DNA of 63,996 nucleotides, counting the filler, from Asterionella formosa (lineage: Eukaryota): the NCBI GenBank assembly GCA_002256025.1. It is 15 parts of 15 records of this genome, joined end to end, with 100 filler letters (N's around TTAATTAATTAA, not from the genome) between each part and the next. Parts side by side here need not be neighbours in the genome. Positions count along the whole stretch, not along the records: positions 22,479 to 44,853 come from NKIB01002769.1; positions 44,954 to 46,326 come from NKIB01002776.1; positions 46,427 to 47,799 come from NKIB01002777.1; positions 47,900 to 49,272 come from NKIB01002778.1; positions 49,373 to 50,745 come from NKIB01002779.1; positions 50,846 to 52,218 come from NKIB01002780.1; positions 52,319 to 53,691 come from NKIB01002781.1; positions 53,792 to 55,164 come from NKIB01002782.1; 7 more parts are not named here. The stretch is one strand, 5' to 3'. The notes below the pieces were generated by a model. That model did no database searches. It was not told the DNA's origin and saw nothing but the letters and a program-made list of their open reading frames with translations. Within the stretch, counting starts at the first letter, position 1, and each line of letters begins with the position of its first letter. The position numbers were made by a program, and so were the translations under genes. Positions 1 to 63,996 of the stretch are shown piece after piece.

Positions 1-2422
1 GTTCCATTCCTTGTAGCACTTGGAACGTTTGCCATTCCAGATAACATGTGATATACTTTGGCACTATCGATAGCATGCAAATGTCAAGTTCCTGTCAAAA
101 AAACGTGACTGTAACTAACAGAACAACAAGGAAGCAGAAAGGGATAATGGTCTGTCAGCTATAGGATTAGACAGTGGGCAAGTGCTGGATCGGAAGCGAT
201 GCAGCACCGACATACTCAGTAATGGACATTAGATTGGTAGCGCAAAGCTGCAGTTTCATATTACCAGCTTAGTAATAGGTACAGTTTCACTGTAGCCACG
301 TCATGTTCCGACAGGGTATTGAGACAAGGGCAAGAAGGGAATGCTGGTAGGGCAAACTACAGTTTCACAGTACCAGCGTAGTAATAGGTACAGTTTCACA
401 GTACCGGGTTTTCTAATTCCTGTTAAGTCTTGTATATTTTATCTAATCATTCATACTGGTAGGGTATTGAATGTTCCTTCGAAAAAGTTACTAGACATAC
501 AGAGATGTATGTTATACACACTTTTTGAAGAAGAGGAAATGTTGAGATATTGATAAAAAGTTCATGTCGGTAGTGCATTCTATTCCACATAACAAACTGA
601 TGAGGGAATGGTGATAGAGAGCCTTCTACCGGTATCAAACCAACCGGTGAGAAGAGGTAAGTTATATGATTGTTTTGCTTCTCAACTGTGGCTAGTACTA
701 AGGGGCTTATGATCGGTACTGTGTGAGACCGGAAGCAAACTATAAATTTGTATCGCTGTTCGTGTGCGCTGCTACCACTCAAAGTTTCTACACTTCCTCA
801 GGACGAACGATAAAAATCAACTTAATTACGAGGTAAGAAACCGCACTTAATATGTTTGTGCACAATGCTGCAGAGGGTTTGTTGTGTCTGTGTCCAATAA
901 TTTGGATTTCGACATTAAAAACATCTTTGTCTTCCATATATGCAGATGTGAGGGTTAACAACGCTACCCTGTCACCCATCAATCAACAGTGAGAGCATAG
1001 GTAAGTTACTATACTCTTATTTGATGCTAGTTATGTCTATTAGAACGACTTGAAGTTACCATAACGATTGTTTATGTCATGTGTTAGTGGCACATGTGTG
1101 GCTGGAGATGCTTTAATTGTTGCAACACTTTTCTAACATTGATATTATCTCCTCAAAATCATACAGGAACCTTGGAGAATGTGGCTTGCTACCATTCTTA
1201 ATGGAATCAACAATCAACCATGAGAGCACAGGTAAGTTATTTGCACATTGCCTGCTCATACGGAAATTGGAGTGATGGATTCTTCATGTGATCGATTCGT
1301 TGCACATATCTACTTTTAGATGGCTGCCTTGCTTACTTGATGCAACAGTTTTGCTAACATTGTTGTTATTATCTCTTACAGGAAAGTCGTACAAGAACAT
1401 AGGACGAGAATGTGACTTGCTGTCATTTGCAATGGTAGAGGGTCGAATAAAGCATCATCAATTTCGTTTACTCTCTCATTTCATTTTGAAAAGTCAATGA
1501 TATAAACATAGCTACCGGAAGTCAAAATTAAGGTATTGAAGACCACTGTGTGCTCATTCTGATAGAAGATGCACAGTGAAAAGTATGGGTGACCAGAAGT
1601 AGAATATTTGAGTATTAAATAGCAATCCATTTAATTCGATTTGTGTTCATCATTGATCGAACATGATAATTGGTTTGATCAATGAGTGAAATTGCTTAGA
1701 TAGATCAGTAGTAATGAACGTTAGATAGAAAGCTAAAAATTCTATTTGATATTAGCATTTCAAAGGTTAGACCGAATGAATAACTGATTTGATCTCACAA
1801 TTAATATCTTTAGATCGAACACCAAAACGTTAGTTGATATCAATCATTTTTTTGTAGTATGATCAATCAGAATTTCTGTATGATCAATCAGTTTTTTTGT
1901 ATGATCAATCAAGAAATAATACGTCATACTGAGAATTTTTGGGGCAGTGGGTCTTACAGCAAAACTGTTAGGCCTAACGGATTTTTGTTTACAGACGTGA
2001 TAAAGATTATTACTTGCTGACAACAACTAGAACTTACTAATACGAATAGATTTTCTGAATGACCCTTATGCCTATGAAGTATATACATGACCAGACACAA
2101 CCATTACCCCTGTCTGATAGCCTTACCAATACTATGATGAACACGCATAAGAACGTTATATTTAAATACATAGTCACAGTCATTATCACGCTTGCTTGAT
2201 GAAACAGGAGCCTACTGTTATATTTGCAAAATCATGATACAAATCACATATCACCTAGTATGGTTGGGATATATGATATGCTCAGGGTAGCCAAAGTAGC
2301 CCTCGTAGATACTTGTATATGATTATTTATATCAGATCTTGTGATTTGTCTCTCTATATTAAACACTACTACAGTGTAGTCGTTGTGAGCAGCTGGAGAA
2401 TGCTGCATCATGACATCGCAGT

Positions 2423-22279: not shown

Positions 22280-22378
22280 CGTTGTTAACTTTCGATGTTT
22301 TCGCGAAGAGCTGTGAAGAGGCAGCAGCGGGGTGGGAGCGATTGGATGTATGGGTACCTGGTACCAGTCAAAAACTGC

Positions 22379-28207: not shown

Positions 28208-28680
28208 TGGTACCTGGTACCCTGGTACCGTAATACCTGTAAAAAAGTACGGGTACATCCCGTAGACGAAACGATGCGTGCATATTTCAGCCCACCCGGG
28301 CAAAAATGAGTGGTTACACTGTACAGGTACTACATGCAACGATACCTATCCCCTGTTGCTTGTTTGTTGCCGTTCTTTGGTGTGAGCGATGCTAGTGACA
28401 GTGGTTTTGCATACTGGTATGTAGGCACCTACCCCTACCAGACGATCGAACCGGTACCTGGTAAATAGACTACCCCTGGTACCGTATGTACCGGATACTT
28501 GCACCAGGTACCTGGTACCTGGTACCCTGATACCGGTACCCTGGTACCAGGGGTCCCATCAGTGTTTTTAATACACTAAGATTTTGTGCGCCACTACCAG
28601 GTACCTGGTACTGGTACCAGGCACCAGTATCCTGGTGTACCAGGTATGCATGCACTATTATAGGTACCTGGTAACCAAGT
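28208..28680. promoter_or_regulatory. Dense GGTACC(W) motif cluster upstream of EF-G
   Basis: About ten GGTACC copies, including CCAGGTACCTGGTACCTGGTACC at 28504-28526. Confidence 0.5.
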
Positions 28681-31155: not shown

Positions 31156-31190
31156 GGTACCTGGTACCTGGTACCTGGTACCAGGTACCA
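31156..31190. repeat. (GGTACCW)5 heptamer array upstream of CK2-beta
   Basis: GGTACC starts at 31156, 31163, 31170, 31177 and 31184; 31169-31190 is a perfect 22-bp palindrome. Confidence 0.9.
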
Positions 31191-37626: not shown

Positions 37627-37778
37627 GGTACCAGGTACCAGGTACCAGGTACGTGATACCAGACATGGAGCATTGATGTACCGGTAGGTAAATAGAGAAT
37701 TATACTGGACGGTAGTTATAACTTACTATGACATTATGGAGTACTAATACCGGTACAAGGTACCAGGTACCTGGTACT
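37627..37778. repeat. (GGTACCW)n arrays
   Basis: GGTACCAGGTACCAGGTACCAGGTAC at 37627-37652 and GGTACCAGGTACCTGGTAC at 37759-37777. Confidence 0.85.
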
Positions 37779-41608: not shown

Positions 41609-41726
41609 CAGTAGAACAAAAACAGGGGAGTAAAACGAAGTAAAGAGTAATGAAACTGAGAAAAAAGCAACAATTATTCCCGGTTCTTGATTCATTTAAT
41701 ACTGCGCACTTGACAGAAGTGTTACC

Positions 41727-41862
41727 CAGGTACCTGACCATGTTGACCTGGTACGGCACCTGATACAATGGTACCTGGTACCAGGTACCGTACCAGTTAC
41801 TGTACCGGTACACCAGATCAACGATTTCGCAACGACGTGCTTGGGACCGGTACTGGTACTGG
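41727..41862. promoter_or_regulatory. GGTACC(W) motif cluster upstream of the 41608 gene
   Basis: CCAGGTACCTG, TGGTACCTGGTACCAGGTACC and GTACCGGTAC lie 120-250 bp upstream of the ATG. Confidence 0.45.
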
Positions 41863-44625: not shown

Positions 44626-45079
44626 TAAGATGGCTTGCCAGTTGGCGCTATTGGCGATCGCGCAAAATAAATGGTTCATGTGGTGGCTGGACGCTTTAAA
44701 CTGGGAACGGAAGCACTGGACGATAAGACTAGGAGAAAAGAAGAGCAGAGTAGAAGGAGAGTGAGAAAGCGAATAAGAAAGTTATGGATTATAAAGCAAC
44801 ATTGAACGAGGTGCAAGCGATCAGAGCACTCAACAAACGGGCACACAAATGGANNNNNNNNNNNNNNNNNNNNNNNNNNNNNNNNNNNNNNNNNNNNTTA
44901 ATTAATTAANNNNNNNNNNNNNNNNNNNNNNNNNNNNNNNNNNNNNNNNNNNNTCTGGAGAAACAAATGAATAATAAGTGCTGTCTTTGGACCTTGTACC
45001 TGATAACCTGGTACTTTTACTGTGTCCCGGTTATTTCTCCATGATGCTGGTATTGTACCTGGTCTAGCACACTACCAGG

Positions 45080-46326
45080 TGAAGTATCTAACTAGAAGTA
45101 GTAGTATTTGTTGAATATATGAGCTTATTAATTAATCCTTATGTATAACTCATTTCCTGAACTGACATCAAAGTATAGAATGGGTGTTAGTCGAGTTCTC
45201 TCATTATTGAATTCCGATATATTTGACATAACCCCAACTCTATATATATCTGTATCGATGTGCAGGATTGCTCACTCTCCCACACTTGAGGGAAAACCTT
45301 TTACCTATGAAAAGGTTTGATACGACGAATATTAATTCGTTCGGTAATATGCATAGTGCGTTGAAAAGTAACTGTACCATTGGCATGTACTTGAATAATA
45401 GTATAAGGACCTCGTCCACGATCATCCAAAGTAGTAGGATTATCCAATAATATTAAAATCTCGTCACCCACTTTGTAATCATAAGATCGACGACGGAAAT
45501 TTGCACGACGTAAACGTTCGTCAATTATCACCTGTCGACGTTGATGTATTAATTGTAAATCTGTAATCAAAGGAATATTTAATATCATATCACGTTGGAA
45601 AACCCATGCTCCTGGTGAAATACGTAATATACTATGAATAGTAGCTCGAGCTGCATATGACGCAGCTGCAAAACATGTATCCACAATATTTTGGGCTTGA
45701 AATTCATTGATTGGAGGATGAGCCTTTAACATAACTCGTAGACTATTGCTGATAGATTGATGGAAACGTTCACAGATAGCATTTGCTTGTGGATTCTTTA
45801 CTGTGGTAGTCACATCTTTGATTCCATTCAATACTAACATGTGTAAGAAAGGAGCACCAGTAAATTCACCTCCATTGTCATGTATACAACGTTCTGGACG
45901 GGGATATCTGGCTAACCAATCATTTTCAAATTTCATTGCAATATATTCTGATGTTTTATTGATGATACGTGAAATTTCTGCTAAATTGGTGACTGTGTCA
46001 ATACAAGTTAGAGCACGAAATTCAATCGTTTGAGCAGCCACTGTTATCTTCCATGGACCAATTAGATCTACTGCGACTTCTGACCATGGTAATAATAATG
46101 CATTCCTGGGTGGAAGTTCACCAAAACCAGTACCAGGTAATTTTGTACGTTGACATGCTTCACATACTCTTACAATATGTTCCACTCTTGTTTTTAATAT
46201 AGGGTGATAAAAATGTGTAGCAATTGTAGCATTTAATCTTGTCATACCCACATGAGCTAACATCTGATGATACCAATTAATAATAGGATCCAATAATGAT
46301 GTAGGAATAGCAATACGCCAAGTATC
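45080..46326 (-). mobile_element. Ty3/Gypsy LTR retrotransposon 3' end, copy 1 (integrase 45301-46293, PPT, 195-bp LTR 45080-45274)
   Basis: HHCC zinc finger, VAVDLIGPW, HDNGGEF, NAICER with D(35)E spacing, GPY motif; integrase is the last domain; PPT GGGAGAG then TGA...TCA LTR. Confidence 0.95.
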
Positions 46327-46832
46327 NNNNNNNNNNNNNNNNNNNNNNNNNNNNNNNNNNNNNNNNNNNNTTAATTAATTAANNNNNNNNNNNNNNNNNN
46401 NNNNNNNNNNNNNNNNNNNNNNNNNNACAACGGACAACAATTAATCGTGGTGTGTATCATGGTTCTTCTACTGGTATATACCTACAGGTATACTTGTTCG
46501 TTCTTGGTATACCGGTAGTTAGCACATACGATACGACCCTACGTAGCAAACTATCAATATTGACTCACAGGACGACAGCAAAGTCGTACATATCATGCAT
46601 GCATAAAAAGGCTGGCTGCATGAAAATAATAATTATAGTAGCCCACGTTGTGCTAGGACAAAATATAATCCTTATCCCTACCGTAGGACGGAATATCGCG
46701 TCAATTTGTTTGCTTCAATCAGCTCACCATGTTGCTCAATATCGCCACTGTTTCCTCTGCAAAAGTGATTCCCCAAAGGCTTTTATATTCGTTTGAATAG
46801 TCATGAGTGAAATGCTACTGGGGAATCACTTT

Positions 46833-47799
46833 TCACATGATATTCAAAAAGTTATACCAATATCGCTCCATTATGGCTGTCATCAGCCAGCAACCCTGCC
46901 ACTCATTGTCTGAAAGGTAAGATTGAACAATAACTCCAGAGTCATGAGCAGCAGCCTCAAACTTGTGTTTTGAAACTAGAGTTTCATGAGAGGTCAGAGA
47001 GACTTGATGTTCCACATGAACAAAACCGGAAGCATGGTCAACAAACAGACATCCTCCTGAGTACATTTGCTCTTGAGCCGTTTTTCCTTTTGAATCATAG
47101 TTTCGTCCCTTAGTGTGACAAACAAAGTGATCGACTGAGACTTGCTGCCCTGGTAGGAGGTCTCCTTTCTTAAGTGCACCACAGCTTGATGGAACAGGTG
47201 TAGAAACACTGCTGGAAGTTGGTCGACGTTTTGCCTTTCCAAATTGGCAGGAGGCACAGCGAGGTAGGACACAGTTGGATGCTGAACGGTGCAGATTCTT
47301 TTGCCCTTCACTTGTTGCAAGGGCTCCTGATCTCAACAGTAATTGTATTGATTCAAAGTGTAGATGGCCAAGACGAAAGTGCCAACGCAATAGTTCCTTC
47401 TGAGCTTCGGTTAGATTTTGATTGTTGGAATCGGTAACACAGAGGTTAAGCTCTTGAGCACAGCGATTGACATCCACTTCATTGTATCCATAGCTGATAG
47501 GAAGGTTGTTGTTGGTTGAGAAAGGGACAACAATGTCTGGTGCTCCACCTCCACAGATACGAATATGATCAGACTCAACTTGACCATAGGCGGGAGTTTT
47601 AGATCCAACAAAACCTTGGATATAAGATTGCCAACTGAGGAGTTGTTGGTGAGCTCCAGGAGTATAGTAAGCAGAGAGCTCAAGACAATGGAGAGTACCA
47701 TCAACTGCCGGAACCATCCACCTGACCTTGCCTTGACCTTCAATTGATAATCCTGCTGCTAGTCCTTTCAGTGTGACAGGTATGGCCAAGGGGGTTATC
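46833..47799 (-). mobile_element. Ty1/Copia (CoDi-like) pol fragment: pre-integrase region and truncated integrase
   Basis: LLRWHFRLGH, CASCQFGK, PGQQVSVDHF, LFVDHASG, YLSDN; similarity stops after SDN. Confidence 0.9.
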
Positions 47800-49498
47800 N
47801 NNNNNNNNNNNNNNNNNNNNNNNNNNNNNNNNNNNNNNNNNNNTTAATTAATTAANNNNNNNNNNNNNNNNNNNNNNNNNNNNNNNNNNNNNNNNNNNNA
47901 ATTCATTCTGATACTGATAACATCGTTGGGTACAAGGTTTACATACACATAAGGTGATCTGTGTAAAGTCATAACCTTTGCTAAAACAATAATTGATCAA
48001 AGAGCAACAGCTATTGATCAATCAAACAACGTATCAATATATCAAAACATTTGGTTAGCAGATTAGTTTTGATAATTAATATATATGACTTCTATCTATG
48101 CTTAACCTGACAGGTGTAAGAAAATAAGATGACAAACAAATTTGATTGACCACACCAACACGGTCATTGATATATCAAAATTATCATCAACATAACAAAA
48201 CATTTGATCAATATATCAACAATTTGGATTAACCGATTAGATTTGGTATACACGCATAACGTAACGTGTGTATGCTACTAACCTAACGTACAAATTTGAT
48301 TGATAATACAGACATGGCTTGTGATAGATCAAAATTATCATCAACAAGTCAAAATATTTTAATAATCAATCAGTTTTTTAACGTATGCTGAGTAAAACAT
48401 TAGATCTAATGGAAAATCTTTTCACAGACGAATATATCATGTTGGAGAAGATGTGTATGACCATTGAATTGTTTACTTGGCCGTTTCCATTTCTCTTTCA
48501 AGAATGATTCCAGGAAACCACCAAAGAAATTGATGGGTGTTCCAAAGCATTTTTAAATTGAATCATATTTCTTAAGAATATAATCACTGACTCAAAACAT
48601 CATGCTTTCGGGCAGAGCATCTCCCTGCAAGAACTTACCTAAGATTCCTTTAAATTGATTATTCAATACATTCTGACATTCTCTCAACTTTTTTATGCAC
48701 ATGACACCAAATGTTGATTGAATATAATCTAAATGTGCCTTGTTGGTACGTTCAATGGTCTGATTAATTGGAAGTAGTGCATCAGAACCATTCCGTATGA
48801 AATCGGCAAGCTCTGGGTCACTCTCCACTTCTTTGCCTAACTCCGGTTTCACTGTGTATAGCCGAGTTAGGCAACATTTGGCAAACCAATCCTGTTCATG
48901 ATTGGAAATGCCTTTCATACTACTTTGACCAGATAGGGCGGGATGCTTGATTCTCTTTTGGGACCAGGAAAAAGCACATTAGATTGATATTCTGTTTTAC
49001 AGTACTACCTGCAATTCACAAACTATAACATCAAACTTACATGTTCACAGCGAAACTTCTTGGTCTTGAAAATAAAACTCACAACCTTTGTGACAATTGA
49101 TGGTTCAATTTCAATTTTAGCTAATCGAGAACGACGTTCTGATAAGGCTGCTGAAATTGAAGAGTCTTGATAACCTTGTATGGACAAGCGAGTTTTGAAC
49201 CGAATTACGAGCTTTGTAGTGATTGAGTTCATTGATCAATTGATAATATCCTTTGGCAAGTGCAAAATGTTTNNNNNNNNNNNNNNNNNNNNNNNNNNNN
49301 NNNNNNNNNNNNNNNNTTAATTAATTAANNNNNNNNNNNNNNNNNNNNNNNNNNNNNNNNNNNNNNNNNNNNGAGGCTTGGGAGGCCCTCGCAGGTTGAC
49401 CTTCTCGCAGCGCCCGGGCGTCACTCGTTCGGTCAACCTGCAAGGGGCTAATCGAACTCAAGATTACTCGCAGGCAGTCTCTACGACCAGGTACCTGG

Positions 49499-50745
49499 TG
49501 AAGTATCTAACTAGAAGTAGTAGTATTTGTTGAATATATGAGCTTATTAATTAATCCTTATGTATAACTCATTTCCTGAACTGACATCAAAGTATAGAAT
49601 GGGTGTTAGTCGAGTTCTCTCATTATTGAATTCCGATATATTTGACATAACCCCAACTCTATATATATCTGTATCGATGTGCAGGATTGCTCACTCTCCC
49701 ACACTTGAGGGAAAACCTTTTACCTTTGAAAAGGTTTGATACGACGAATATTAATTCGTTCGGTAATATGCATAGTGCGTTGAAAAGTAACTGTACCATT
49801 GGCATGTACTTGAATAATAGTATAAGGACCTCGTCCACGATCATCCAAAGTAGTAGGATTATCCAATAATATTAAAATCTCGTCACCCACTTTGTAATCA
49901 TAAGATCGACGACGGAAATTTGCACGACGTAAACGTTCGTCAATTATCACCTGTCGACGTTGATGTATTAATTGTAAATCTGTAATCAAAGGAATATTTA
50001 ATATCATATCACGTTGAAAAACCCATGCTCCTGGTGAAATACGTAATATACTATGAAAAGTAGCTCGAGCTGCATATGACGCAGCTGCAAAACATGTATC
50101 CACAATATTTTGGGCTTGAAATTCATTGATTGGAGGATGAGCCTTTAACATAACTCGTAGACTATTGCTGATAGATTGATGGAAACGTTCACAGATAGCA
50201 TTTGCTTGTGGATTCTTTACTGTGGTAGTCACATCTTTGATTCCATTCAATACTAACATGTGTAAGAAAGGAGCACCAGTAAATTCACCTCCATTGTCAT
50301 GTATACAACGTTCTGGACGGGGATATCTGGCTAACCAATCATTTTCAAATTTCATTGCAATATATTCTGATGTTTTATTGATGATACGTGAAATTTCTGC
50401 TAAATTGGTGACTGTGTCAATACAAGTTAGAGCACGAAATTCAATCGTTTGAGCAGCCACTGTTATCTTCCATGGACCAATTAGATCTACTGCGACTTCT
50501 GACCATGGTAATAATAATGCATTCCTGGGTGGAAGTTCACCAAAACCAGTACCAGGTAATTTTGTACGTTGACATGCTTCACATACTCTTACAATATGTT
50601 CCACTCTTGTTTTTAATATAGGGTGATAAAAATGTGTAGCAATTGTAGCATTTAATCTTGTCATACCCACATGAGCTAACATCTGATGATACCAATTAAT
50701 AATAGGATCCAATAATGATGTAGGAATAGCAATACGCCAAGTATC
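49499..50745 (-). mobile_element. Ty3/Gypsy 3' end, copy 2 (integrase 49720-50712, LTR 49499-49693)
   Basis: Same as copy 1 except for a few SNPs (I>F, H>Q and one silent change seen). Confidence 0.95.
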
Positions 50746-50845
50746 NNNNNNNNNNNNNNNNNNNNNNNNNNNNNNNNNNNNNNNNNNNNTTAATTAATTA
50801 ANNNNNNNNNNNNNNNNNNNNNNNNNNNNNNNNNNNNNNNNNNNN

Positions 50846-52092
50846 GATACTTGGCGTATTGCTATTCCTACATCATTATTGGATCCTATTATTAATTGGT
50901 ATCATCAGATGTTAGCTCATGTGGGTATGACAAGATTAAATGCTACAATTGCTACACATTTTTATCACCCTATATTAAAAACAAGAGTGGAACATATTGT
51001 AAGAGTATGTGAAGCATGTCAACGTACAAAATTACCTGGTACTGGTTTTGGTGAACTTCCACCCAGGAATGCATTATTATTACCATGGTCAGAAGTCGCA
51101 GTAGATCTAATTGGTCCATGGAAGATAACAGTGGCTGCTCAAACGATTGAATTTCGTGCTCTAACTTGTATTGACACAGTCACCAATTTAGCAGAAATTT
51201 CACGTATCATCAATAAAACATCAGAATATATTGCAATGAAATTTGAAAATGATTGGTTAGCCAGATATCCCCGTCCAGAACGTTGTATACATGACAATGG
51301 AGGTGAATTTACTGGTGCTCCTTTCTTACACATGTTAGTATTGAATGGAATCAAAGATGTGACTACCACAGTAAAGAATCCACAAGCAAATGCTATCTGT
51401 GAACGTTTCCATCAATCTATCAGCAATAGTCTACGAGTTATGTTAAAGGCTCATCCTCCAATCAATGAATTTCAAGCCCAAAATATTGTGGATACATGTT
51501 TTGCAGCTGCGTCATATGCAGCTCGAGCTACTATTCATAGTATATTACGTATTTCACCAGGAGCATGGGTTTTCCAACGTGATATGATATTAAATATTCC
51601 TTTGATTACAGATTTACAATTAATACATCAACGTCGACAGGTGATAATTGACGAACGTTTACGTCGTGCAAATTTCCGTCGTCGATCTTATGATTACAAA
51701 GTGGGTGACGAGATTTTAATATTATTGGATAATCCTACTACTTTGGATGATCGTGGACGAGGTCCTTATACTATTATTCAAGTACATGCCAATGGTACAG
51801 TTACTTTTCAACGCACTATGCATATTACCGAACGAATTAATATTCGTCGTATCAAACCTTTTCATAGGTAAAAGGTTTTCCCTCAAGTGTGGGAGAGTGA
51901 GCAATCCTGCACATCGATACAGATATATATAGAGTTGGGGTTATGTCAAATATATCGGAATTCAATAATGAGAGAACTCGACTAACACCCATTCTATACT
52001 TTGATGTCAGTTCAGGAAATGAGTTATACATAAGGATTAATTAATAAGCTCATATATTCAACAAATACTACTACTTCTAGTTAGATACTTCA
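50846..52092 (+). mobile_element. Ty3/Gypsy 3' end, copy 3 (integrase 50879-51871, LTR 51898-52092)
   Basis: Integrase identical to copy 1; LTR TGAGCAATC...GATACTTCA. Confidence 0.95.
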
Positions 52093-52318
52093 CGTGGTAC
52101 TAAAAAAACCATGCATGGTCTAACCTAAACTTTAAGACTTACTTTGAACACGTTATAATATTATCTCTGTAGACTCGGTATTGTTTTTACGAGACCAGAA
52201 TGTTAAATTTGATCGTTCNNNNNNNNNNNNNNNNNNNNNNNNNNNNNNNNNNNNNNNNNNNNTTAATTAATTAANNNNNNNNNNNNNNNNNNNNNNNNNN
52301 NNNNNNNNNNNNNNNNNN

Positions 52319-53565
52319 GATACTTGGCGTATTGCTATTCCTACATCATTATTGGATCCTATTATTAATTGGTATCATCAGATGTTAGCTCATGTGGGTA
52401 TGACAAGATTAAATGCTACAATTGCTACACATTTTTATCACCCTATATTAAAAACAAGAGTGGAACATATTGTAAGAGTATGTGAAGCATGTCAACGTAC
52501 AAAATTACCTGGTACTGGTTTTGGTGAACTTCCACCCAGGAATGCATTATTATTACCATGGTCAGAAGTCGCAGTAGATCTAATTGGTCCATGGAAGATA
52601 ACAGTGGCTGCTCAAACGATTGAATTTCGTGCTCTAACTTGTATTGACACAGTCACCAATTTAGCAGAAATTTCACGTATCATCAATAAAACATCAGAAT
52701 ATATTGCAATGAAATTTGAAAATGATTGGTTAGCCAGATATCCCCGTCCAGAACGTTGTATACATGACAATGGAGGTGAATTTACTGGTGCTCCTTTCTT
52801 ACACATGTTAGTATTGAATGGAATCAAAGATGTGACTACCACAGTAAAGAATCCACAAGCAAATGCTATCTGTGAACGTTTCCATCAATCTATCAGCAAT
52901 AGTCTACGAGTTATGTTAAAGGCTCATCCTCCAATCAATGAATTTCAAGCCCAAAATATTGTGGATACATGTTTTGCAGCTGCGTCATATGCAGCTCGAG
53001 CTACTATTCATAGTATATTACGTATTTCACCAGGAGCATGGGTTTTCCAACGTGATATGATATTAAATATTCCTTTGATTACAGATTTACAATTAATACA
53101 TCAACGTCGACAGGTGATAATTGACGAACGTTTACGTCGTGCAAATTTCCGTCGTCGATCTTATGATTACAAAGTGGGTGACGAGATTTTAATATTATTG
53201 GATAATCCTACTACTTTGGATGATCGTGGACGAGGTCCTTATACTATTATTCAAGTACATGCCAATGGTACAGTTACTTTTCAACGCACTATGCATATTA
53301 CCGAACGAATTAATATTCGTCGTATCAAACCTTTTCATAGGTAAAAGGTTTTCCCTCAAGTGTGGGAGAGTGAGCAATCCTGCACATCGATACAGATATA
53401 TATAGAGTTGGGGTTATGTCAAATATATCGGAATTCAATAATGAGAGAACTCGACTAACACCCATTCTATACTTTGATGTCAGTTCAGGAAATGAGTTAT
53501 ACATTAGGATTAATTAATAAGCTCATATATTCAACAAATACTACTACTTCTAGTTAGATACTTCA
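52319..53565 (+). mobile_element. Ty3/Gypsy 3' end, copy 4 (integrase 52352-53344, LTR 53371-53565)
   Basis: Integrase identical to copy 1; one LTR SNP (ACATTAGG versus ACATAAGG). Confidence 0.95.
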
Positions 53566-53791
53566 CCAGGTACCTGGTACTGTTTTGTATCTGCCTGTTG
53601 GCAGATATGAACTTTTAAAATTGGTTGCCTCGGCCGAGCCGCCCAAATTAAGATGATCTTTCGAAACAGTTCGCTCGTTGGTCATCATTGTNNNNNNNNN
53701 NNNNNNNNNNNNNNNNNNNNNNNNNNNNNNNNNNNTTAATTAATTAANNNNNNNNNNNNNNNNNNNNNNNNNNNNNNNNNNNNNNNNNNNN

Positions 53792-55038
53792 GATACTTGG
53801 CGTATTGCTATTCCTACATCATTATTGGATCCTATTATTAATTGGTATCATCAGATGTTAGCTCATGTGGGTATGACAAGATTAAATGCTACAATTGCTA
53901 CACATTTTTATCACCCTATATTAAAAACAAGAGTGGAACATATTGTAAGAGTATGTGAAGCATGTCAACGTACAAAATTACCTGGTACTGGTTTTGGTGA
54001 ACTTCCACCCAGGAATGCATTATTATTACCATGGTCAGAAGTCGCAGTAGATCTAATTGGTCCATGGAAGATAACAGTGGCTGCTCAAACGATTGAATTT
54101 CGTGCTCTAACTTGTATTGACACAGTCACCAATTTAGCAGAAATTTCACGTATCATCAATAAAACATCAGAATATATTGCAATGAAATTTGAAAATGATT
54201 GGTTAGCCAGATATCCCCGTCCAGAACGTTGTATACATGACAATGGAGGTGAATTTACTGGTGCTCCTTTCTTACACATGTTAGTATTGAATGGAATCAA
54301 AGATGTGACTACCACAGTAAAGAATCCACAAGCAAATGCTATCTGTGAACGTTTCCATCAATCTATCAGCAATAGTCTACGAGTTATGTTAAAGGCTCAT
54401 CCTCCAATCAATGAATTTCAAGCCCAAAATATTGTGGATACATGTTTTGCAGCTGCGTCATATGCAGCTCGAGCTACTATTCATAGTATATTACGTATTT
54501 CACCAGGAGCATGGGTTTTCCAACGTGATATGATATTAAATATTCCTTTGATTACAGATTTACAATTAATACATCAACGTCGACAGGTGATAATTGACGA
54601 ACGTTTACGTCGTGCAAATTTCCGTCGTCGATCTTATGATTACAAAGTGGGTGACGAGATTTTAATATTATTGGATAATCCTACTACTTTGGATGATCGT
54701 GGACGAGGTCCTTATACTATTATTCAAGTACATGCCAATGGTACAGTTACTTTTCAACGCACTATGCATATTACCGAACGAATTAATATTCGTCGTATCA
54801 AACCTTTTCATAGGTAAAAGGTTTTCCCTCAAGTGTGGGAGAGTGAGCAATCCTGCACATCGATACAGATATATATAGAGTTGGGGTTATGTCAAATATA
54901 TCGGAATTCAATAATGAGAGAACTCGACTAACACCCATTCTATACTTTGATGTCAGTTCAGGAAATGAGTTATACATAAGGATTAATTAATAAGCTCATA
55001 TATTCAACAAATACTACTACTTCTAGTTAGATACTTCA
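53792..55038 (+). mobile_element. Ty3/Gypsy 3' end, copy 5 (integrase 53825-54817, LTR 54844-55038)
   Basis: Integrase identical to copy 1; same LTR. Confidence 0.95.
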
Positions 55039-55264
55039 CCAGGTACTTCAAGTGAGAGTCATTGTCATTTCATCTGAAGAAAACCAGGTACAACACCAAT
55101 GGGAATTTTGCGACGACGACGTCACCAGTACCGCACCGGTATTTGGTTTTCGGTGGTTGCGCTCNNNNNNNNNNNNNNNNNNNNNNNNNNNNNNNNNNNN
55201 NNNNNNNNTTAATTAATTAANNNNNNNNNNNNNNNNNNNNNNNNNNNNNNNNNNNNNNNNNNNN

Positions 55265-55668
55265 AGGCAGGGACAATGAGGTCCGGAATGGAAGTTGTTC
55301 TGGTAAGATTACTGCGCTATTTTGACGGCTATATGAGCAACGCTTTTTACACTGACTACTCACACTGATCTTCCTCTACATTCAATTGACATTGCAGCAA
55401 ACCCTTTCAATTCAGGAGCATTCGGATGAAATCCAAAAGAACTCTGCAATACAGTTGAATGGTGAGTGTGTTCTTGTTGTGTACCTAAATGCTAGTATGG
55501 CTTGTCAGCTCAAGCATTGTTGTCGACAACAGGCAGGGACAATGAGGTTTGGAATGAACGTTGTTCTGGAAAGATTACTGCGCTATTTGACGGCTATATG
55601 AGCAACGCTACTGATAACTCACACTGATCTTCCTCTACATTCAATTGACATTGCAGCAAACCCTTTCA
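55265..55668 (+). repeat. Direct repeat of about 140 bp with period 266 bp
   Basis: AGGCAGGGACAATGAGGT...GCAGCAAACCCTTTCA at 55265-55409 and 55531-55668. Confidence 0.9.
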
Positions 55669-55820
55669 GTGCAGGATCATTCGCATGCCATTCGGAATGA
55701 GCAGGCTTTATTTCATTAATGAAACTCTTTAATTTAGTTGAATGAACTCCAGAAAATTACGTAAACAAATGTTACATATTAAGTGAACTTTTTTCTAGAA
55801 TTATGTGAACGAAATTACAG

Positions 55821-56074
55821 AATTACGTGAAGTATTTCAAATAATTATGTGAAGTATTTTCAAATAATTATGTGAAGTATTTCAAATAATTATGTGAAGT
55901 ATTTCAAATAATTATGTGAAGTATTTCAAATAATTATGTAAAGTATTTCAAATAATTATGTAAAGTATTTCAAATAATTATGTGAAGTATTTCAAATAAT
56001 TATGTAAAGTATTTCAAATAATTATGTGAAGTATTTCAAATAATTATGTGAAGTATTTCAAATAATTATGTGAA
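55821..56074 (+). repeat. 22-bp minisatellite, about 11.5 copies
   Basis: Unit AATTATGTRAAGTATTTCAAAT. Confidence 0.95.
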
Positions 56075-56250
56075 GGTGATCACATAATATAGTGATGATC
56101 AGGAATGCATGCATGATACTTTGATCAAATATTTAACGTGATGTATTCAGATAATATATAGATATTTTCAACTACGTATTTTGATGTATTCAACTAATTC
56201 ATGTGATGCATTCAAAATCAACTAGTCTTATTTATGTGATGGTCAGTTCA

Positions 56251-56643
56251 CGTAATACACGGCTTTGATGTGGTCCTCAAACATGTCCTTAATACTGCAA
56301 AACAAATCAATGATTGCAAAGTTCGCCTCTGCGTGAATGGCAGTTTCCAAATCAAAGGAGTAGATTACACTGAATCTTTTGCACCAACCATCTTGGCTAT
56401 GTCTATCAAAGTTTTTCTCGCCATTGTTATATATCTGCATTATGATTTCTACCATCTTGATATTAGCAATTCATTTAAAAATACCCCAGCACCTCCCAAT
56501 GAAGCTGGCAATCGCATTTGGCTCAGAATGTTTCCTGAGTACATCCTATGGTTTTAAACTAGATTCCCTACTGAATATGCGTCAATGACTAAAACACTCC
56601 CGGATAGTAACAAATATCCATGGAAAACTCTTGGAGTCGAAAT
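56251..56643 (+). pseudogene. Ty1/Copia reverse transcriptase (RVT_2) fragment
   Basis: KVRLCVNGSFQIKGVDYTESFAPT...HLDISNSF; in-frame TAA at 56555-56557 with the frame continuing to the contig end. Confidence 0.85.
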
Positions 56644-57790
56644 NNNNNNNNNNNNNNNNNNNNNNNNNNNNNNNNNNNNNNNNNNNNTTAATTAATTAAN
56701 NNNNNNNNNNNNNNNNNNNNNNNNNNNNNNNNNNNNNNNNNNNTACCCGGTAGATTAGTCGTCAGCAATGCAATGAATGCCTGACGACGATGATGGTCTA
56801 TTACTGCCCTACTGGCATTACAGATTATATAGTATCAGCAACATGTGCATTTACAACATGCATCAATACGACAGATTGCATCATTTGCATAATAGGCCGT
56901 CGGCGTCTGTGGTATTTCCTGCGAGTTGCTATGTATCATAGTTAGGATACAAAGGCATGTGACATCATGTGCCGGCACAGATAATATTGGTACTGTGGTA
57001 TTACCAGCTACCCTTGAGTATTATTAAGACGCCCGGATGTACCATACCTGGTACCACGTTTCAAAACTAGATGGCCTCCTCGCGGCTGAAACAGACATGC
57101 TGCCGCAAGGACAATAACATTTGTTGTAGTGAGCAACTTATTTAATGAATCCTAACTGTGATATATGCAGACGCAAAGGTTTTTGGTACATATATGTGTA
57201 GAAATACTAAACAAACCGCAGCAGCTTTTTGTACAAGGGAACTACCGGTATATATTATAGTATGTACAGTGATGGATTTTAGTCATTCTGCCACAGCACA
57301 GGACACTCAGCACAGTTATATGAACAATGTGTAGCCGTGGAAGGTACTGGTACCCTGGTACCAGGAGTACAAGTTACTCCAACCTCTTACCTGGTACCCC
57401 CAGGCACCGTCCTCTGGTTGACAAATGAAGACATAACCACACTGAGACCAAAGGTCAGCAAAACCTGGCCATGCCTCTTTCTTCATAGTACCTGGTACTA
57501 GGTACTGTACATACATCGGTTTACCGCAGGGTATGTACTAATTTAGATAACTCCGCCCTACATATCACATTCAACAGTCGTTGCACTCTGACATAATATA
57601 TGGTCATATATACTCGCCTAATAGCGGACAAATAACACAATTTTTCCTCTTGTTTTCTGTTTGAGTTTTCCTGCCTCAGCTATCATCACTGGAGTGTGTG
57701 TGTGTTTGGTTGTTTGTGTTTGTATTTGATCCCAAACACTACATGATTGCAGGGTATCCTCAGTTAGTTTTAGCAGCTGCCACACGAACG

Positions 57791-58114
57791 ATGAGTGCCG
57801 GGACCAGTGCTGAAACTAGTAGGGATCCTTCGTGCTGGCGTGACAGTGCTACGACTCCAAAAGGTACCACGACTACCGGGAGGAGCTCTTGGGAACACTC
57901 AATCGCTTCCAATTCATCGCGAGACATGTTGCATGACTCCATGACCTTGTCACAAGTCTTTCGTACGTCCGGGAGCTCACGGACAGCAGGTTTCAATAGT
58001 ACCAGTTGCAGTTTGGGCGAACCATCACGAGGACAAGGGTCATTATCATCATCCACGTCTAATGTCCATGCCTATAATGCCCATGCTACTACCGCTGTCC
58101 TCAAGTCGTCAACT
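57791..58114 (+). CDS. Possible 5' part of a Ser/Thr-rich protein gene, truncated by the contig end
   Basis: ATG at 57791, frame open to the gap, coding-like GC content, preceded by a GGTACC cluster at 57343-57510. Confidence 0.4.
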
Positions 58115-58216
58115 NNNNNNNNNNNNNNNNNNNNNNNNNNNNNNNNNNNNNNNNNNNNTTAATTAATTAANNNNNNNNNNNNNNNNNNNNNNNNNNNNNN
58201 NNNNNNNNNNNNNNAC

Positions 58217-58423
58217 AATTCTTTCACTGGCACACTTCCCACAGAGATTGGACTCTTGACAAGTCTCACTGCCATTACTCTGCAGAACAATACATTCACA
58301 GGTTCAGTGCCAGCTGAGATATGGCCTGGACTTAACACAAGCGTCAATACACTAGGATTGAGTAACAATTTATTCAATGGTTCAGTTCCCCCAGATAAAG
58401 GGGACATCTCCTACTACCAATAG
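58217..58423 (+). CDS. C-terminal fragment of a plant-type leucine-rich-repeat protein (absent from the ORF track because it has no start)
   Basis: Manual translation: NSFTGTLPTEIGLLTSLTAITLQNNTFTGSVPAEIWPGLNTSVNTLGLSNNLFNGSVPPDKGDISYYQ*, matching LxxLxLxxNxLxGxIP. Confidence 0.8.
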   Translation, partial: NSFTGTLPTEIGLLTSLTAITLQNNTFTGSVPAEIWPGLNTSVNTLGLSNNLFNGSVPPDKGDISYYQ

Positions 58424-59511
58424 AGGCACATGTGTGATGAACAGAATTAAACAATTTATGTATGACATTACCATATTAGGATTCATGTTTACTTGCGTGA
58501 CTTTTCGACTATGAATATATACATAAAAACATTCATTTTATTTATAATATGGTGAGTTAAAAGCATGAACATAAATCAACAACTCATAGTTAACAAACAA
58601 ATGTACAGCTACGCCGGAGAACACTACAATACCAGTAGATGCGTACATACATACCAGTCCATATGCATTAGAATATTCGTCAACAACCACACACCAAAAC
58701 TGTTAGGGTTAGGGAAAAGGGACGTCATCCCTATAGAGCATCCAGCCCTTCTAGGGCTGGGCATGTAACTTTAGCACAGAGTATGACTAATCCTATAGAT
58801 GGAAACTGTTATGAGAATGAATGTGTTAGTACCGGTTGTTTGTCTTTTGATATCAATATGTAGAAGTGCACTGTGTTGTACTTACCAGAGTGATGGTCAT
58901 GTAAAAATGTTATACATATCTCTTAAGGTAATTCGACTACTGATAAAAAAATTCTCAACCAAGTGATGTGTATTGATATTTTCAACTGCAATTGGCTTTG
59001 GTATTTGGTCGATATGGTGGCGATGCTCTAAGGGAAATCTCTTCATTGTCCTGGGCCCCCCTAAGTAAAATCAGTCAAAATCAGTCACGGCAGTGTACAT
59101 TGGTGGGTCCAGGACAATGAAGTATACGGTATGTATACGTATGAGCAAGGTTCAAACATAAACTGCTATCATATGTCCTTATGTCTTGTACCGGTAGTAT
59201 CATGGTGGTACCAAGGTACCAGTACCACACCCTCAATCACATACCTGGTACCTGGTACCAGACGTGTCCATGGTTGCTTTGTTACGGTCGTTATTTCGTT
59301 ACTCCAGATTTGGAACGTCGCAGTTTTTCGTGCTGATGTACTGATCATGCTATGACACAGGGCGACATCCTGTGTGATACCAATACTTTGCTATCCCCTG
59401 ATACGGGCTTGAACCACCGTGACACCTCCATGCAGTAAATGTGGTCACAAAATATTGGTAAGTACGAATTTTATCTCACTTCGGTATCGGCCTTTCTCTT
59501 TTCGTTTACTC

Positions 59512-59532
59512 GTTGTTGTTGTTGTTGTTGTT

Positions 59533-59585
<53 letters not shown>
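59512..59585 (+). repeat. (GTT)n microsatellite at the contig end
   Basis: About 24 GTT units with one ATT interruption. Confidence 0.97.
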
Positions 59586-60102
59586 NNNNNNNNNNNNNNN
59601 NNNNNNNNNNNNNNNNNNNNNNNNNNNNNTTAATTAATTAANNNNNNNNNNNNNNNNNNNNNNNNNNNNNNNNNNNNNNNNNNNNGATGCTCGATGCTCG
59701 ATGCTCGATGCACGATACAATGACAAGTCTGAATCCTTCCATGAATTCTTCGATTCACTCAAATTGCTGCGCTAACTCCTCCTCCTTGTCCTGTCGACTT
59801 GACAGAAGCTGCTCTGATGCTACCGGTACCTGGTAGTATACCAAAGTCGAATACGCGAGCGTGCGGTCACCCGCGGTCACATCAGCTCTGCAAAAAAGCT
59901 TCCATGAGAGTTCTCGATATTTTGTGTCCACACAATCCACTGTCCATTGTCTGCATCAAAATGGTTCCATTATATTTCCATCATCGGGTAGCGAAGTGTC
60001 CAAGGACTGTGCCTCCTATCAACAACTGTTCAACAAATATGTAATTCAAAGTTGGAACATTGGATGATTTTTGATTTTAATTACGAGATGATTATTTCGT
60101 GA

Positions 60103-60187
60103 GATCAGATCTGATCTGATTTGATCTCATTTCATCTGATTTGATCTCATTTCATCTCATCTGATCTCATCTGATTTCATCTGATTT
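60103..60187 (+). repeat. Degenerate pentamer repeat (SATYT)n
   Basis: GATCT/GATTT/CATCT/CATTT units; complementary (AAATG)n units at 60569-60587. Confidence 0.85.
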
Positions 60188-61156
60188 CTTTTCTTTTCTA
60201 CCCGATCAAAAGCCTATTCGATACTTGTACGCCTGGTCCGGTGTGGCAAGCATGCTCGATTCATTGAACTCTGGAGATTACGTTGACATAAACAAACTCA
60301 TGTCTGGTTGGAAAAGAGCCTTCGGGGATTTTTCCCTCTTATTGAAAACATTTAATTTATACGTTGGTTCCCTGGGAGATCACGGTACGGCGGGTGAGAA
60401 ACTGTTGCCTGTTGCCTGCCACTAAGCCTGTTGGTGCCCAGTTTTTAAATCAGTTACGGTCGCTAAGGTCTTGAATCGCAACAAGTGTTGTTCACTTTAT
60501 TCGTTGTCTAAAACCCTAAAACCCAATGATGATGCTCTCGTTCAAGACTACCGATACCGATACCGATAAAATGAAATGAAATGAAATAACTCCAATCGTT
60601 CTATAGCTTCTATAAGACAAAGTTATTGTCATATCATAACCGAAAAAAAGGTTATGCCTCCTGCTATAATACAAAATAGTCATCCACGAAAAGAAAAGCT
60701 TCATAAGACTTTAGCTCTATAATAATAAATTGTTGTAATTCGCCGCCTCATTTGGTTTGTTAGAACGGTCTACCTGTTGTGAGATGAGACCAGAAGAAGA
60801 CAATTGAACTCGAGGGCGTACCTCCGTAGGGGTTACTGGGTCCCAAACCAGTTGTTACTTGAACGATCGAGTGTGTCTTCTAAGGAAACATTTCACAGCG
60901 AGCAAACCGAACTTGATAGAATTTCATGTTGTTGTTTTTGTTGTTTTGGTAATTTTGGTAGTTTTTGTTCTTCATTCAGTAGTTTTGTTCAGTTCAATTG
61001 GTGCAGACAATACATTTACAAAAACATTCACACTGATATCTTTCATACACACTTGCNNNNNNNNNNNNNNNNNNNNNNNNNNNNNNNNNNNNNNNNNNNN
61101 TTAATTAATTAANNNNNNNNNNNNNNNNNNNNNNNNNNNNNNNNNNNNNNNNNNNN

Positions 61157-61657
61157 CTGCAGACGAGCGGCGTGAGAAAGATCTTGACCGGTCATTCCAG
61201 GGCAGTACTGGAGCGCGCTAGAGTTGCGCCATATATTTCAACATGGTAGCGGGCTCGTTAGTACAAGTGGTACGAGGAAGAACATGAAAACCAGAGGTCG
61301 ACAGTTCGAGTCCATCAGCAAGAACAGAAAGAAAAAGAGAGAAGAGAAAAAAGAAAAACAGAGACGTAGAAAACGAGAAGGCACTATGAGAATTCCTGTA
61401 GGAAAGGATGTGTCGAGCATACACATTAGGATGATGTGGTATGTCGAGCATCAACAGGGGAGGGTGTCAGAGTGTGTCTGTTAGGCTGTTGATGTCGACA
61501 GGTGTCCGAAGACTAGGTAGTCTGAGGAATGTCTAAACGGAAATAGACAGGATTTATATAGCAGAAGAATCTGCAGACGAGCGGCGTGAGAAAGATCTTG
61601 ACCGGTCATTCCAGGGCAGTACTGGAGCGCGCTAGAGTTGCGCCATATATTTCAACA
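61157..61657 (+). mobile_element. TRIM-like miniature non-autonomous LTR retrotransposon
   Basis: 61157-61243 is identical to 61571-61657. The first copy is followed by PBS TGGTAGCGGG (61244). 221-bp non-coding interior, PPT AGGGGAGGG (61456-61464), complete 193-bp TG...CA 3' LTR at 61465-61657. Confidence 0.88.
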
Positions 61658-63464
61658 ACCAGGTACCTGGCACATAAAGTCGTCGCTATGTAGTGCAGTG
61701 GTAGTTAACTAGCACCTTCGACAAAGCTCAGTATATATACTGCCTTGTATAGACTGGGTAATACCATCACCTCTAATAGCTTTGTCATGAAATGAAATCC
61801 CTTGTTGTACCTCCCCAGTTTTCTAGTAATATGCATGTTAACATGCAAACCATGAAACTACTAGGAGATAAAATAGTTAATAACAATTGTGGTACTAAAC
61901 AAGCAATGTAAATACTAAAGACATTGCAAATTTCAAAATTTCAATGAAATTATCTAAACACACAGTAGTAAATGCCCACCAGTGCAACAATCTTTTATCA
62001 GATGCATGAGTATGTATGTCACTGTTTGGTCTTGGGCATATGGCTCATAAATTCGGTCTATTGCTGTGTTTGCAGGAGTAGTATCACCAGCACAAACTAG
62101 CATTGCAACTGTCTCCCACAGAATTTAGCACCAGCAGTAAATAAATTTCAGTCTACTCCTTTCAACCCTTGTAAATAGCCTTTCTGGCTTTTGCCCTCCA
62201 ATCCCAACCTCCCATTCCTGTCAAAGAACAACTAGCATCTTTGGTGTCTTAGCCACTACTATTGTACTAGACTGGATCAACAGCCATTTTACTTTCCAAA
62301 TCGTTTTACTTTGGGTTAAAGTACTGAAAGACTATTTAGGGTTAAGCAAATGATGGAATCTAATTTAATCAAGACAACGTTAAGCAATATTTTTCTTAAA
62401 CTTGGTAGACAAGCATGCACAGTCCTTAATTCATATGTAGATGACTGCATGTGTCACTACAGAAGGAAAGAGATTTACCAGCATTAGTCTACTGGTACTA
62501 TGTTAACAATATGCTGGTAATAACAGNNNNNNNNNNNNNNNNNNNNNNNNNNNNNNNNNNNNNNNNNNNNTTAATTAATTAANNNNNNNNNNNNNNNNNN
62601 NNNNNNNNNNNNNNNNNNNNNNNNNNCCGGTACATTTTTGTCATCTTAACTTTGAGAGAAGGTAAACGTTTTGTCAGCTTTGTTCCAACAGAAGTGAATA
62701 GGTCCAACGAGCGACAAGAGCACTTACGCAATTTGGTTTTGTTTTGTTTTACATTGGTGCTCCCCAACAAGCGAAACGAGCTGTTGAATCAACTGAGAAA
62801 AAAGGAAATGTGGCTGCGTTTAGTTAACAATTTGTTGTTGTCCTGCCTGCCTCCCAACGATTGTCATCCAAGTACCACATTGATGGCTTCATTACCTTAA
62901 ACATTCTCCATCCTTCGAAGGCGCAATGTTTCGAAGTCACAATGTTTTTCGTTATGTATTGCGTAAACTTTCTTTGCTTGTCATGTCCTTTACTACGACG
63001 TATCTTTTCATGAAGCAGCAAGCATTGATTGTTAACGTGACAGAACGATTTGAAAAATATATATGCCATGAATATAGTAATAAAATTTGTAAATATATAT
63101 ATATATAGCGTAATACATTTTATAAAATTCAAAGGCACTCTCGATATGGAACATCTGATATGGTTGAGATGGCCATACTTGCATATACATAATTCGAAAA
63201 TACTCAATGCACTATATGTCCATTGTTTTCCACGACTACGTGTACCGGTATTATCTCTGAAATTTGTTTGCATCGATATTTTCTACGTCCGTCGAAACTA
63301 ATTATTTAGACCGTTCAAATGCCCCTTTTTTGGGCGGGAGCTCTTCATGTGTAACGGTACATCATATGACAATAACAATGTATCATTTATACATACAGGG
63401 TACCAGTAGCAGGTAGTAAGTGATATACTGGGGGTAGTCGGAGTAGTACCGGTAAACTAGCAAC

Positions 63465-63741
63465 AGAACACCATATGTTCAGGACTGTTGCTACTGCAGT
63501 GGGACAGTAAATCATCATAGTTTTAGGATCGTATGATCGTAAAACTAAAAACCAATAGAACACGAAATGTCTATGACTACTGCTATTGCAGCGGGACAGT
63601 AAATCATCATATTTTTCGGATCGTATGATCATAAAACTAAAAACCAATAGAACACCATATATTCAGGATTGTTGCTACTACCGTTGGACAATAAATCATC
63701 ATAGTTCCAGGATTGTATGATCGTAAAACTAAAAACCAATA
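63465..63741 (+). repeat. Tandem repeat of about 92 bp, 3 copies
   Basis: Units AGAACAC...TAAATCATCATA...GTATGATCRTAAAACTAAAAACCAAT. Confidence 0.9.
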
Positions 63742-63996
63742 GTCGGAGTAATAAGCGAGCAACAGAACACCATATGTTCTGGCATACCTACCCGGTAGTT
63801 ATCATAATATTGCTTTTATGAATTTAACTGGCGCGATAATTAGCCAGGCTGACGAGTTACTACCGGTACCTGGTACCAGGTAGTACGTCTACATCTTTTA
63901 TCAGCACCTTTAAGTAGCACCTACGGTTATGGTGGTACTATGTTTTTCCCTATTATTTTCTGTCGCAGCTCCGTAGAGAGGCTGTGAAAGTCAAAG

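Follow-up and report, generated by a model that had tools for sequence, protein, structure and literature searches.

Integrases of the retroviral type are usually poor readers of DNA sequence, and the sequence-specific exceptions known to us have 4 bp cores and all belong to one insect clade. Here we describe a Ty3/gypsy long terminal repeat (LTR) retrotransposon of the diatom Asterionella formosa, five copies of which lie in a 63,996-nucleotide stretch of joined contigs (the window, by which we mean the whole stretch analysed), and for which the insertion point is probably constant, at the centre of GTA|CNWGG|TAC, most often in the form GTACCWGGTAC. It is like Ty3 (TFIIIB) and Tf1 (Sap1) in its Ty3/gypsy class and in near base-pair-precise or promoter-directed insertion; Tf1 targeting proceeds via Sap1, and both elements owe their precision to a host protein complex rather than to a sequence word where the cut is made.

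LTR elements for the most part integrate without specificity, according to text passages of PMC5408687, in which the Drosophila errantiviruses are described as targeting TATA, CGCG and ATAT and as having unusual AGT/AnT ends. The diatom element resembles the errantiviruses and the elements derived from them that have two open reading frames (ORFs) (gypsy, ZAM/Tirant, Idefix/297/17.6), as these appear in passages of PMC5408687 and PMC3276498, in its Ty3/gypsy class, its palindromic target and a duplication that would lie at the target centre, and this type of insertion into a palindromic word is seen at six 3′ junctions, one 5′ junction and one unoccupied site. However, the errantivirus targets in these passages are 4 bp cores (~6 bp with flanks) with 4 bp duplications, whereas in the diatom element 7–9 of the 11 positions do not vary and the duplication would be of 5 bp. 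Errantiviruses also have AGT/AnT ends and an env gene, whereas the diatom element has TG/CA ends and a pol that runs to the polypurine tract, with no room for env. Rice Tos17 (Ty1/copia) likewise has a palindromic consensus around a 5 bp target-site duplication (TSD), ANGTT-TSD-AACNT, in the passage available from PMC6911290, but it is from another superfamily and shows a statistical preference over many insertions, whereas the diatom element has the same bases at every junction seen. Diatom Ty3/gypsy elements with the same order of protease (PR), reverse transcriptase (RT), RNase H (RH) and integrase (IN) have been described as GyDi1 and GyDi2 (Maumus et al. 2009, PMC2806351); the text passages of that paper mention no target specificity. 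The preliminary description of this DNA recognised no described diatom LTR family with such a specificity, and we found no diatom LTR element with a target preference in open-access text; sequence-specific LTR elements as such, however, are in print (errantiviruses and Tos17, in passages of PMC5408687, PMC3276498 and PMC6911290), and the novelty has to be put more modestly on that account. The diatom element differs from these known cases by its lineage, its TG/CA ends, the length of its target word, and in that the word is a host-wide enriched motif.

Junctions between element and host DNA

The region 44954–55164 is not one stretch of chromosome but a series of separate contigs set side by side, with linkers of the form N...TTAATTAATTAA...N between them (at 44854–44953 and in every later gap). 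The pieces from 44954 to 63996 follow one another in rough order of size (seven of 1373 bp, one of 1379 bp, three of 1371 bp and two of 1370 bp), and five of the seven consecutive 1373 bp pieces are copies of the element, which are side by side on account of their equal length and are not genomic neighbours. A five-way alignment shows that 1247 bp are common to all five (columns 1–1247), comprising an open integrase frame, a polypurine tract and a 195 bp TG..CA LTR. Past column 1247 only C1248 and GGTA (1251–1254) are invariant, and the flanks beyond are unrelated. The LTR end TAGTTAGATACTTCA occurs five times in the window, at 45080 (minus strand), 49499 (minus), 52092 (plus), 53565 (plus) and 55038 (plus), and the bases that follow the terminal CA on the element strand are CCTGGTAG in copy 1, CCAGGTACCTGG in copy 2, CGTGGTAC in copy 3, CCAGGTACCTGGTAC in copy 4 and CCAGGTAC in copy 5. 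All five 126 bp flanks thus start C-[C/G]-[A/T]-G-G-T-A, with first pentamers of three kinds (CCTGG, CGTGG and CCAGG). The earlier claim of five near-identical integrase, polypurine tract and LTR ends, each with a different 126 bp flank, was correct in all its coordinates and strings. The features of the five copies are as follows.

44954–45079, minus strand: copy 1, unique 126 bp 3′ flank, starting CCTGGTAG on the element strand (from the alignment)
45080–45274, minus strand: copy 1, 195 bp 3′ LTR (TGAGC...CTTCA)
45301–46326, minus strand: copy 1, C-terminal 341 codons of the integrase plus stop, frame open, cut by the contig end
49373–49498, minus strand: copy 2, unique 126 bp 3′ flank, starting CCAGGTACCTGGTC
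49499–49693, minus strand: copy 2, 3′ LTR
49720–50745, minus strand: copy 2, integrase frame, open; three private single-nucleotide polymorphisms (SNPs; two amino-acid changes) mark it as a distinct copy
50846–51871, plus strand: copy 3, integrase frame of 341 amino acids plus stop, with HHCC, DDE core (DLIGPW / HDNGGEF / ICERFH) and GPY/F tail, no chromodomain
51891–51897, plus strand: copy 3, polypurine tract GGGAGAG, adjoining the LTR (read directly)
51898–52092, plus strand: copy 3, 195 bp 3′ LTR, its two ends being imperfect inverted copies of each other, TGAGCAATC / GATACTTCA
52093–52218, plus strand: copy 3, 126 bp flank, starting CGTGGTAC
52319–53344, plus strand: copy 4, integrase frame, open
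53371–53565, plus strand: copy 4, 3′ LTR, in which a private SNP lies at 61 bp from the junction
53566–53691, plus strand: copy 4, 126 bp flank, starting CCAGGTACCTGGTAC
53792–54817, plus strand: copy 5, integrase frame, open
54844–55038, plus strand: copy 5, 3′ LTR
55039–55164, plus strand: copy 5, 126 bp flank, starting CCAGGTAC, with a second CCAGGTAC 45 bp on

Copies 1, 3 and 5 are identical over the 1247 bp, copy 4 has one difference and copy 2 has three. The flanks of copies 2 and 4 agree over their first 13 bases, but the private SNPs show these to be distinct copies; that the ends represent distinct copies follows from these SNPs together with the differing pentamers, and the SNP in copy 4 ties its flank to a distinct LTR copy. 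Each flank matches only itself in the window, save for motif matches of 15–17 nt, and has no partner contig; a search of the window for further copies, 5′ LTRs, solo LTRs or RT parts found none beyond the five.

Junctions from other sources have the same arrangement. Metagenome contigs scanned with an internal word of the LTR yielded three loci (L001, L002 and L003); the LTR-end pattern had no matches in viral contigs and none in genome contigs, and a protein-based scan of viral contigs gave none. In L003, from another metagenome, the LTR is 94% identical, ends GATAGCTCA and is followed by CCAGGTACCAGGTAAC (CCAGGTACCAGGTA), a sixth 3′ junction in the same register, so that the fixed-register junction first described in the window recurs in an independent contig. 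L002 has an LTR 99% identical to that of the window with host DNA before it and CTTTGAATTCAAAAAGAGTC after it, and it is the sole 5′ junction, ...GTACCTGGTACAAGG|TGAGCAATCC (in longer form ...ACTAGTACCTGGTACAAGG|TGAGCAATCC), with the host side ending GTACAAGG|TGAGC. Here GTACAAGG is GTA plus a CNWGG pentamer, and it lies 7 bp past a perfect palindrome, GTACCTGGTAC.

An unoccupied form of copy 3's site, or of a paralogue, is found in Logan contigs of public runs, of which four (X1, X2, X3 and X9) were aligned to copy 3 (window 50846–52218). Contigs in X2, X3 and X9 carry the copy 3 flank without the element, from 52092 onwards, and are 92% similar to it, with 8–9 differences and one gap in ~109 bases. 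One contig each in X9 and X3 is preceded by ...CTACATACGT (CTACATACGTA; GGTACCGGCAGTCATCTAGTCTACATACGT) and not by the LTR, and the X2 contig aligns from the same place, its preceding bases not being displayed. The unoccupied site reads ...ACGTA|CGTGG|TAC, a palindrome with one asymmetric base, and matches the CGTGG of copy 3. The 5′ sequence expected from the preliminary description, GTACCWGG, is thus found with one variant base each in L002 GTACAAGG and in the unoccupied GTA-CGTGG-TAC. Taken together, CNWGGTA follows the terminal CA at 6/6 independent 3′ junctions, and GTA directly precedes CNWGG at the sole 5′ junction and at the sole unoccupied site.

The boundary between element and target can be placed because the LTR also runs into CTTTGAATTCAAAAAGAGTC inside the element; it follows that the motif lies outside the LTR, which ends at ...CTTCA, and the CNWGGTA bases belong to the target. 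The 5′ boundary of the LTR is confirmed by L002 and the 3′ boundary by L001 and L002. The terminal CA of the 5′ LTR is followed by CTTTGAATTC, the first base of which is the same C as the invariant first flank base, and in both flank and internal contexts there is a G before TG and a C after CA. We prefer the canonical TG..CA ends because the G completes the purine tract. It had been argued that the first flank bases vary among copies and so belong to the target; this stands for positions 2 and 3 but not for base 1, since the C is also the first internal base after the 5′ LTR.

In the public runs the continuation from LTR end to internal CTTTGAATTCAAAAAGAGTC is present in at least 91 contigs of X1 and at least one each of X2 and X3, and is the commonest loose end among the matches listed. 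At least 46 contigs of X1 and at least two of X9 continue from the LTR through CNNGGTAC and diverge only afterwards, again among the matches listed; the X1 consensus past CNNGGTAC continues CAGGTACCAGGTACC, which points to insertions in heptamer arrays. We do not use the X1 contig counts as counts of insertions, since at ~million depth the ~100 bp contigs with depths of ~1000 look like low-frequency variants. In X2, X9 and X3 depth over the final 46 bp of the LTR is 3–6 times that of the integrase part, which fits either solo LTRs or sister families with a conserved LTR tip. Leaving aside the possible source run, no contig among the matches listed spans the junction of copy 3 itself, an absence that carries no weight either way. 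The runs with the element are labelled as freshwater, riverine, sediment or algae metagenome, as unspecified metagenome, or in one case with a coded organism, and several are unlabelled.

Two of the metagenome loci were set aside for particular uses. L001 (1–6257) consists of a degenerate integrase (84% identical, with stops), an LTR, a full element and the start of an LTR, with sequencing adapters at both ends; having no host flank and ending in adapters, it was rejected as a source of flanks, and it is probably two diverged copies that the assembler joined through the LTR, or else a real tandem. The copy in L003 is diverged and keeps only ~30 nt before the LTR, and its left side was rejected as a duplication partner because the element is truncated there just before the polypurine tract. 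L003 also contains a complete 5S rRNA gene (468–586, minus strand; 98.8 bits) 145 bp upstream of the LTR, a single case of a Pol III gene beside the element that may or may not bear on targeting.

The target word in the host

CCWGGTA shows a 12-fold enrichment, with 115 occurrences found and 9.3 expected from shuffles (0/100 shuffles gave more than 17). Once the element contigs and the linkers are masked, 55,119 host bases remain, in which its rate is 8.6e-4 per position and strand and the full palindrome GTACCWGGTAC is present at 24 places (48 strand-counts). Measured against this enriched background, the probability of C[C/G]WGGTA in register at 6/6 junctions is 1.2e-18 and that of at least 5/6 exact CCWGGTA is 2.9e-15, the pattern having been fixed after the data were seen and the sixth junction being that of L003. 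The comparison with background frequency that the preliminary description had proposed thus gives an enrichment far beyond chance, ~1e-18 for 6/6.

TACCWGGTA and GTACCWGGTAC are often in tandem heptamer arrays, e.g. at 28455–28673, 31158–31187, 37629–37776 and 41726–41787, and two related words, TACCGGTA and GTACCGG, likewise occur often in the window. In a loose check of the gene-upstream homing suggested by the preliminary description, judged by eye and without gene models, motif clusters lie within 1 kb upstream of three of the four Pfam-supported ORFs (those for EF-G, CK2-beta and an ankyrin protein, but not that for an SDR). A search of open-access full text with the motif strings returned only primers and barcodes, and no description of the host motif was found. 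Several contigs end in motif-like sequence (e.g. at 22355–22378, 56744 and 62627), which suggests that the motif arrays break the assembly.

Readings of the junctions

A stagger of 4–6 bp is usual for LTR elements, and one of 5 bp is normal. In the mechanism that we propose, the two LTR ends would be joined to the two strands of GTA|CNWGG|TAC at positions separated by 5 bp and placed symmetrically around the central W, and the CNWGG left on each side would constitute a 5 bp duplication. The target DNA would be read directly by an integrase complex of two-fold symmetry. In passages of PMC3276498, target motifs that are palindromic and extend as far as 3 bp past the duplication are described as a general signature of symmetric integrase multimers. 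The conserved bases at the present junctions take in the proposed duplication and 3 bp to either side of it, the usual footprint of integrase on its target, and for this reason we lean, with the balance close to even, towards direct reading over a host tether. Tentatively, and with less confidence than in the fixed position itself, we suggest that the integrase complex may read the 11 bp palindrome alone, and that it would then land on a host regulatory word found every ~2 kb, with the element and the promoter code evolving together.

A host protein might instead do the aiming: a dimeric factor bound to the TACCWGGTA palindrome, maybe a promoter element, could dock the integrase and fix the positions of the cuts. 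The strong enrichment of the motif (115 against 9.3), the 24 full 11-mers in 55 kb and their clustering, often near ORF starts as judged by eye, would all be expected of such a factor, and the integrase is like those of its relatives with no added DNA-binding module, a likeness that is compatible with direct reading too. Tethering is moreover an established route for yeast elements (passages of PMC5408687), and at L002 the element has used the degenerate GTACAAGG although a perfect motif, GTACCTGGTAC, ends 7 bp before it. What a tether bound to neighbouring DNA would not give is the footprint itself, which is the duplication ± 3 bp centred on the cuts and is that of an integrase–target complex; there is also no host factor known to provide the docking. 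We regard this alternative as possible but somewhat doubtful.

Two further readings would do away with the targeting. Were only one or two of the insertions real, the other flanks could be chimeric reads or graph tips formed by template switching at motif microhomology under ~million-fold coverage. X1 does have an extreme summed depth (1.5–5 million for the element and 0.5–5 million for element plus copy 3 flank), with 56,639 contigs of ~100 bp and many internal 'skip' joints at a depth of ~1000; each of the five flanks measures exactly 126 bp, and the first 13 flank bases agree between copies 2 and 4. Yet copies 1 and 3 depart from the others from flank base 2 onwards, which would require a switch precisely at the last base of the LTR; copies 2 and 4 have private SNPs inside the element, L002 and L003 have the same register in other assemblies, and the motif is likewise traversed by contigs of X9, a run from another study. 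An artefact of this kind is accordingly very unlikely. We consider it more improbable still that there is no targeting, with the motif belonging to the end of the element, or with random insertions surviving only in motif arrays. The invariant first flank base C is indeed also found after the 5′ LTR, but what follows there is CTTTGAATTC and not the motif, flank positions 2 and 3 vary, and a survival bias cannot yield a single-base register in 6/6 junctions.

Several observations weigh against a fixed target read by the integrase. The evidence consists of only seven informative junctions (six 3′ and one 5′) and one unoccupied site, and the latter may be a paralogue rather than an empty allele, given its 9 mismatches in 109 positions plus one gap and the high copy number of the flank in X1. 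Neither the window nor the three metagenome loci contain a copy with both flanks, and we therefore infer the duplication and its length from separate junctions and do not read them from a single copy. Palindrome position 5 may be C, G or A, but the mirror position, 7, has G in 7/7, and a strictly symmetric reading predicts otherwise. The same palindrome would also fit GTG..CAC ends with a 3 bp CWG duplication. No extra integrase domain that could account for specificity was seen in a profile search or in an alignment with 10 relatives. At least two contigs of X9 continue CCCCAAGGCAAAAAGAACCC after the LTR (agreement 0.73), of which CAAAAAGA is common with the internal leader; this is perhaps a variant leader of a sub-family, although that is not certain and these could be motif-free flanks, and further motif-free junctions could exist beyond the matches listed. 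As for the age of the insertions, the identity of copies 1, 3 and 5 may in part reflect the reuse of one assembly-graph edge, which weakens the case for recent insertion.

If an integrase does read an 11 bp palindrome alone, it would be the most sequence-specific integrase of the retroviral type known and the first outside the insect errantiviruses. A TG/CA-ended element with an 11 bp target would then be a natural model for how an intasome gains sequence specificity and a possible starting point for site-directed integration tools in diatoms, and its insertions would be an in vivo probe of TACCWGGTA, an abundant and undescribed diatom word that is seemingly near gene starts. In practical terms, the insertions and the motif arrays appear to break short-read assemblies of this genome.

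Class, age and host of the element

The element is a Ty3/gypsy (Metaviridae-type) LTR retrotransposon, as previously assigned. Only the IN part is present in the window, and the pol domain order was read on L001, which matches the window copies at 98% identity over 1154 nt and has a 1194-amino-acid frame with RVP (148–240), RVT_1 (394–551), RT_RNaseH (614–735) and Integrase_H2C2 (860–915), i.e. the order PR-RT-RNaseH-IN. The window integrase has the HHCC zinc domain (PF17921, E = 1.9e-10), and an alignment with 10 relatives shows conservation of the D, D and E columns and of the GPY motif. Pfam rve gives no match to the window copy at E ≤ 0.01. No chromodomain match was found at the integrase C-terminus, where the protein stops 20 residues past the GPY motif. 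The nearest named relatives are diatom proteins of Mayamaea and Nitzschia inconspicua (52% identity over RT-IN), and the integrase itself resembles relatives that are 50–62% identical.

The LTR has the canonical features, with TGAGC...CTTCA ends and the GGGAGAG polypurine tract directly upstream, and in L002 it is bounded by host flank on one side and internal sequence on the other. The pol frame of L001 ends 26 nt before the LTR, leaving no space for an env gene. After the 5′ LTR both L001 and L002 have CTTTGAATTCAAAAAGAGTC, without the TGG start of a tRNA-complementary primer binding site, and there was no host tRNA in the window for comparison. Within this leader, TTGAATTC (L001 minus strand ~4996–4960; L002 1105–1127) can pair with GAATTCAA inside the LTR, an arrangement that faintly recalls self-priming elements such as Tf1. 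The integrase gene contains TTACCTGGTAC at 51031–51041 (and at the same place in each copy), a 10/11 match to the target word, so that self-insertion would be possible; no nested copy was seen.

The insertions are probably recent and not fixed, because the 341-codon integrase frame is open in 5/5 copies, there are 0–3 differences per 1247 bp, and the flanks appear to stop where the assembly graph would branch. The flank size of 126 bp looks like a property of that graph (k−1 for k=127), and a flank ending at k−1 would be expected of a de Bruijn graph in which another path also leads into the flank, be it from the empty allele of a diploid or mixed sample or from a repeat of the flank. That the near identity of the copies reflects recent activity, as the preliminary description had it, is plausible from the sequence comparison.

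A mitochondrial-type EF-G gene at 25448–27679 encodes a product 86–89% identical to proteins of Nitzschia, Cylindrotheca, Phaeodactylum, Fistulifera, Epithemia and Pseudo-nitzschia. Judging from these identities to named pennate diatom proteins the host is a pennate-type diatom, which bears out the diatom origin assumed at the outset; an Atlas search with the host EF-G returned bacterial EF-G clusters only and was uninformative for taxonomy. The window also contains a fragment of another type of element, a 321-amino-acid open frame at 46833–47798 (minus strand) on a 1373 bp contig of its own, with a match to GAG-pre-integrase (PF13976, E 4.6e-08) that indicates a Ty1/copia-type fragment.

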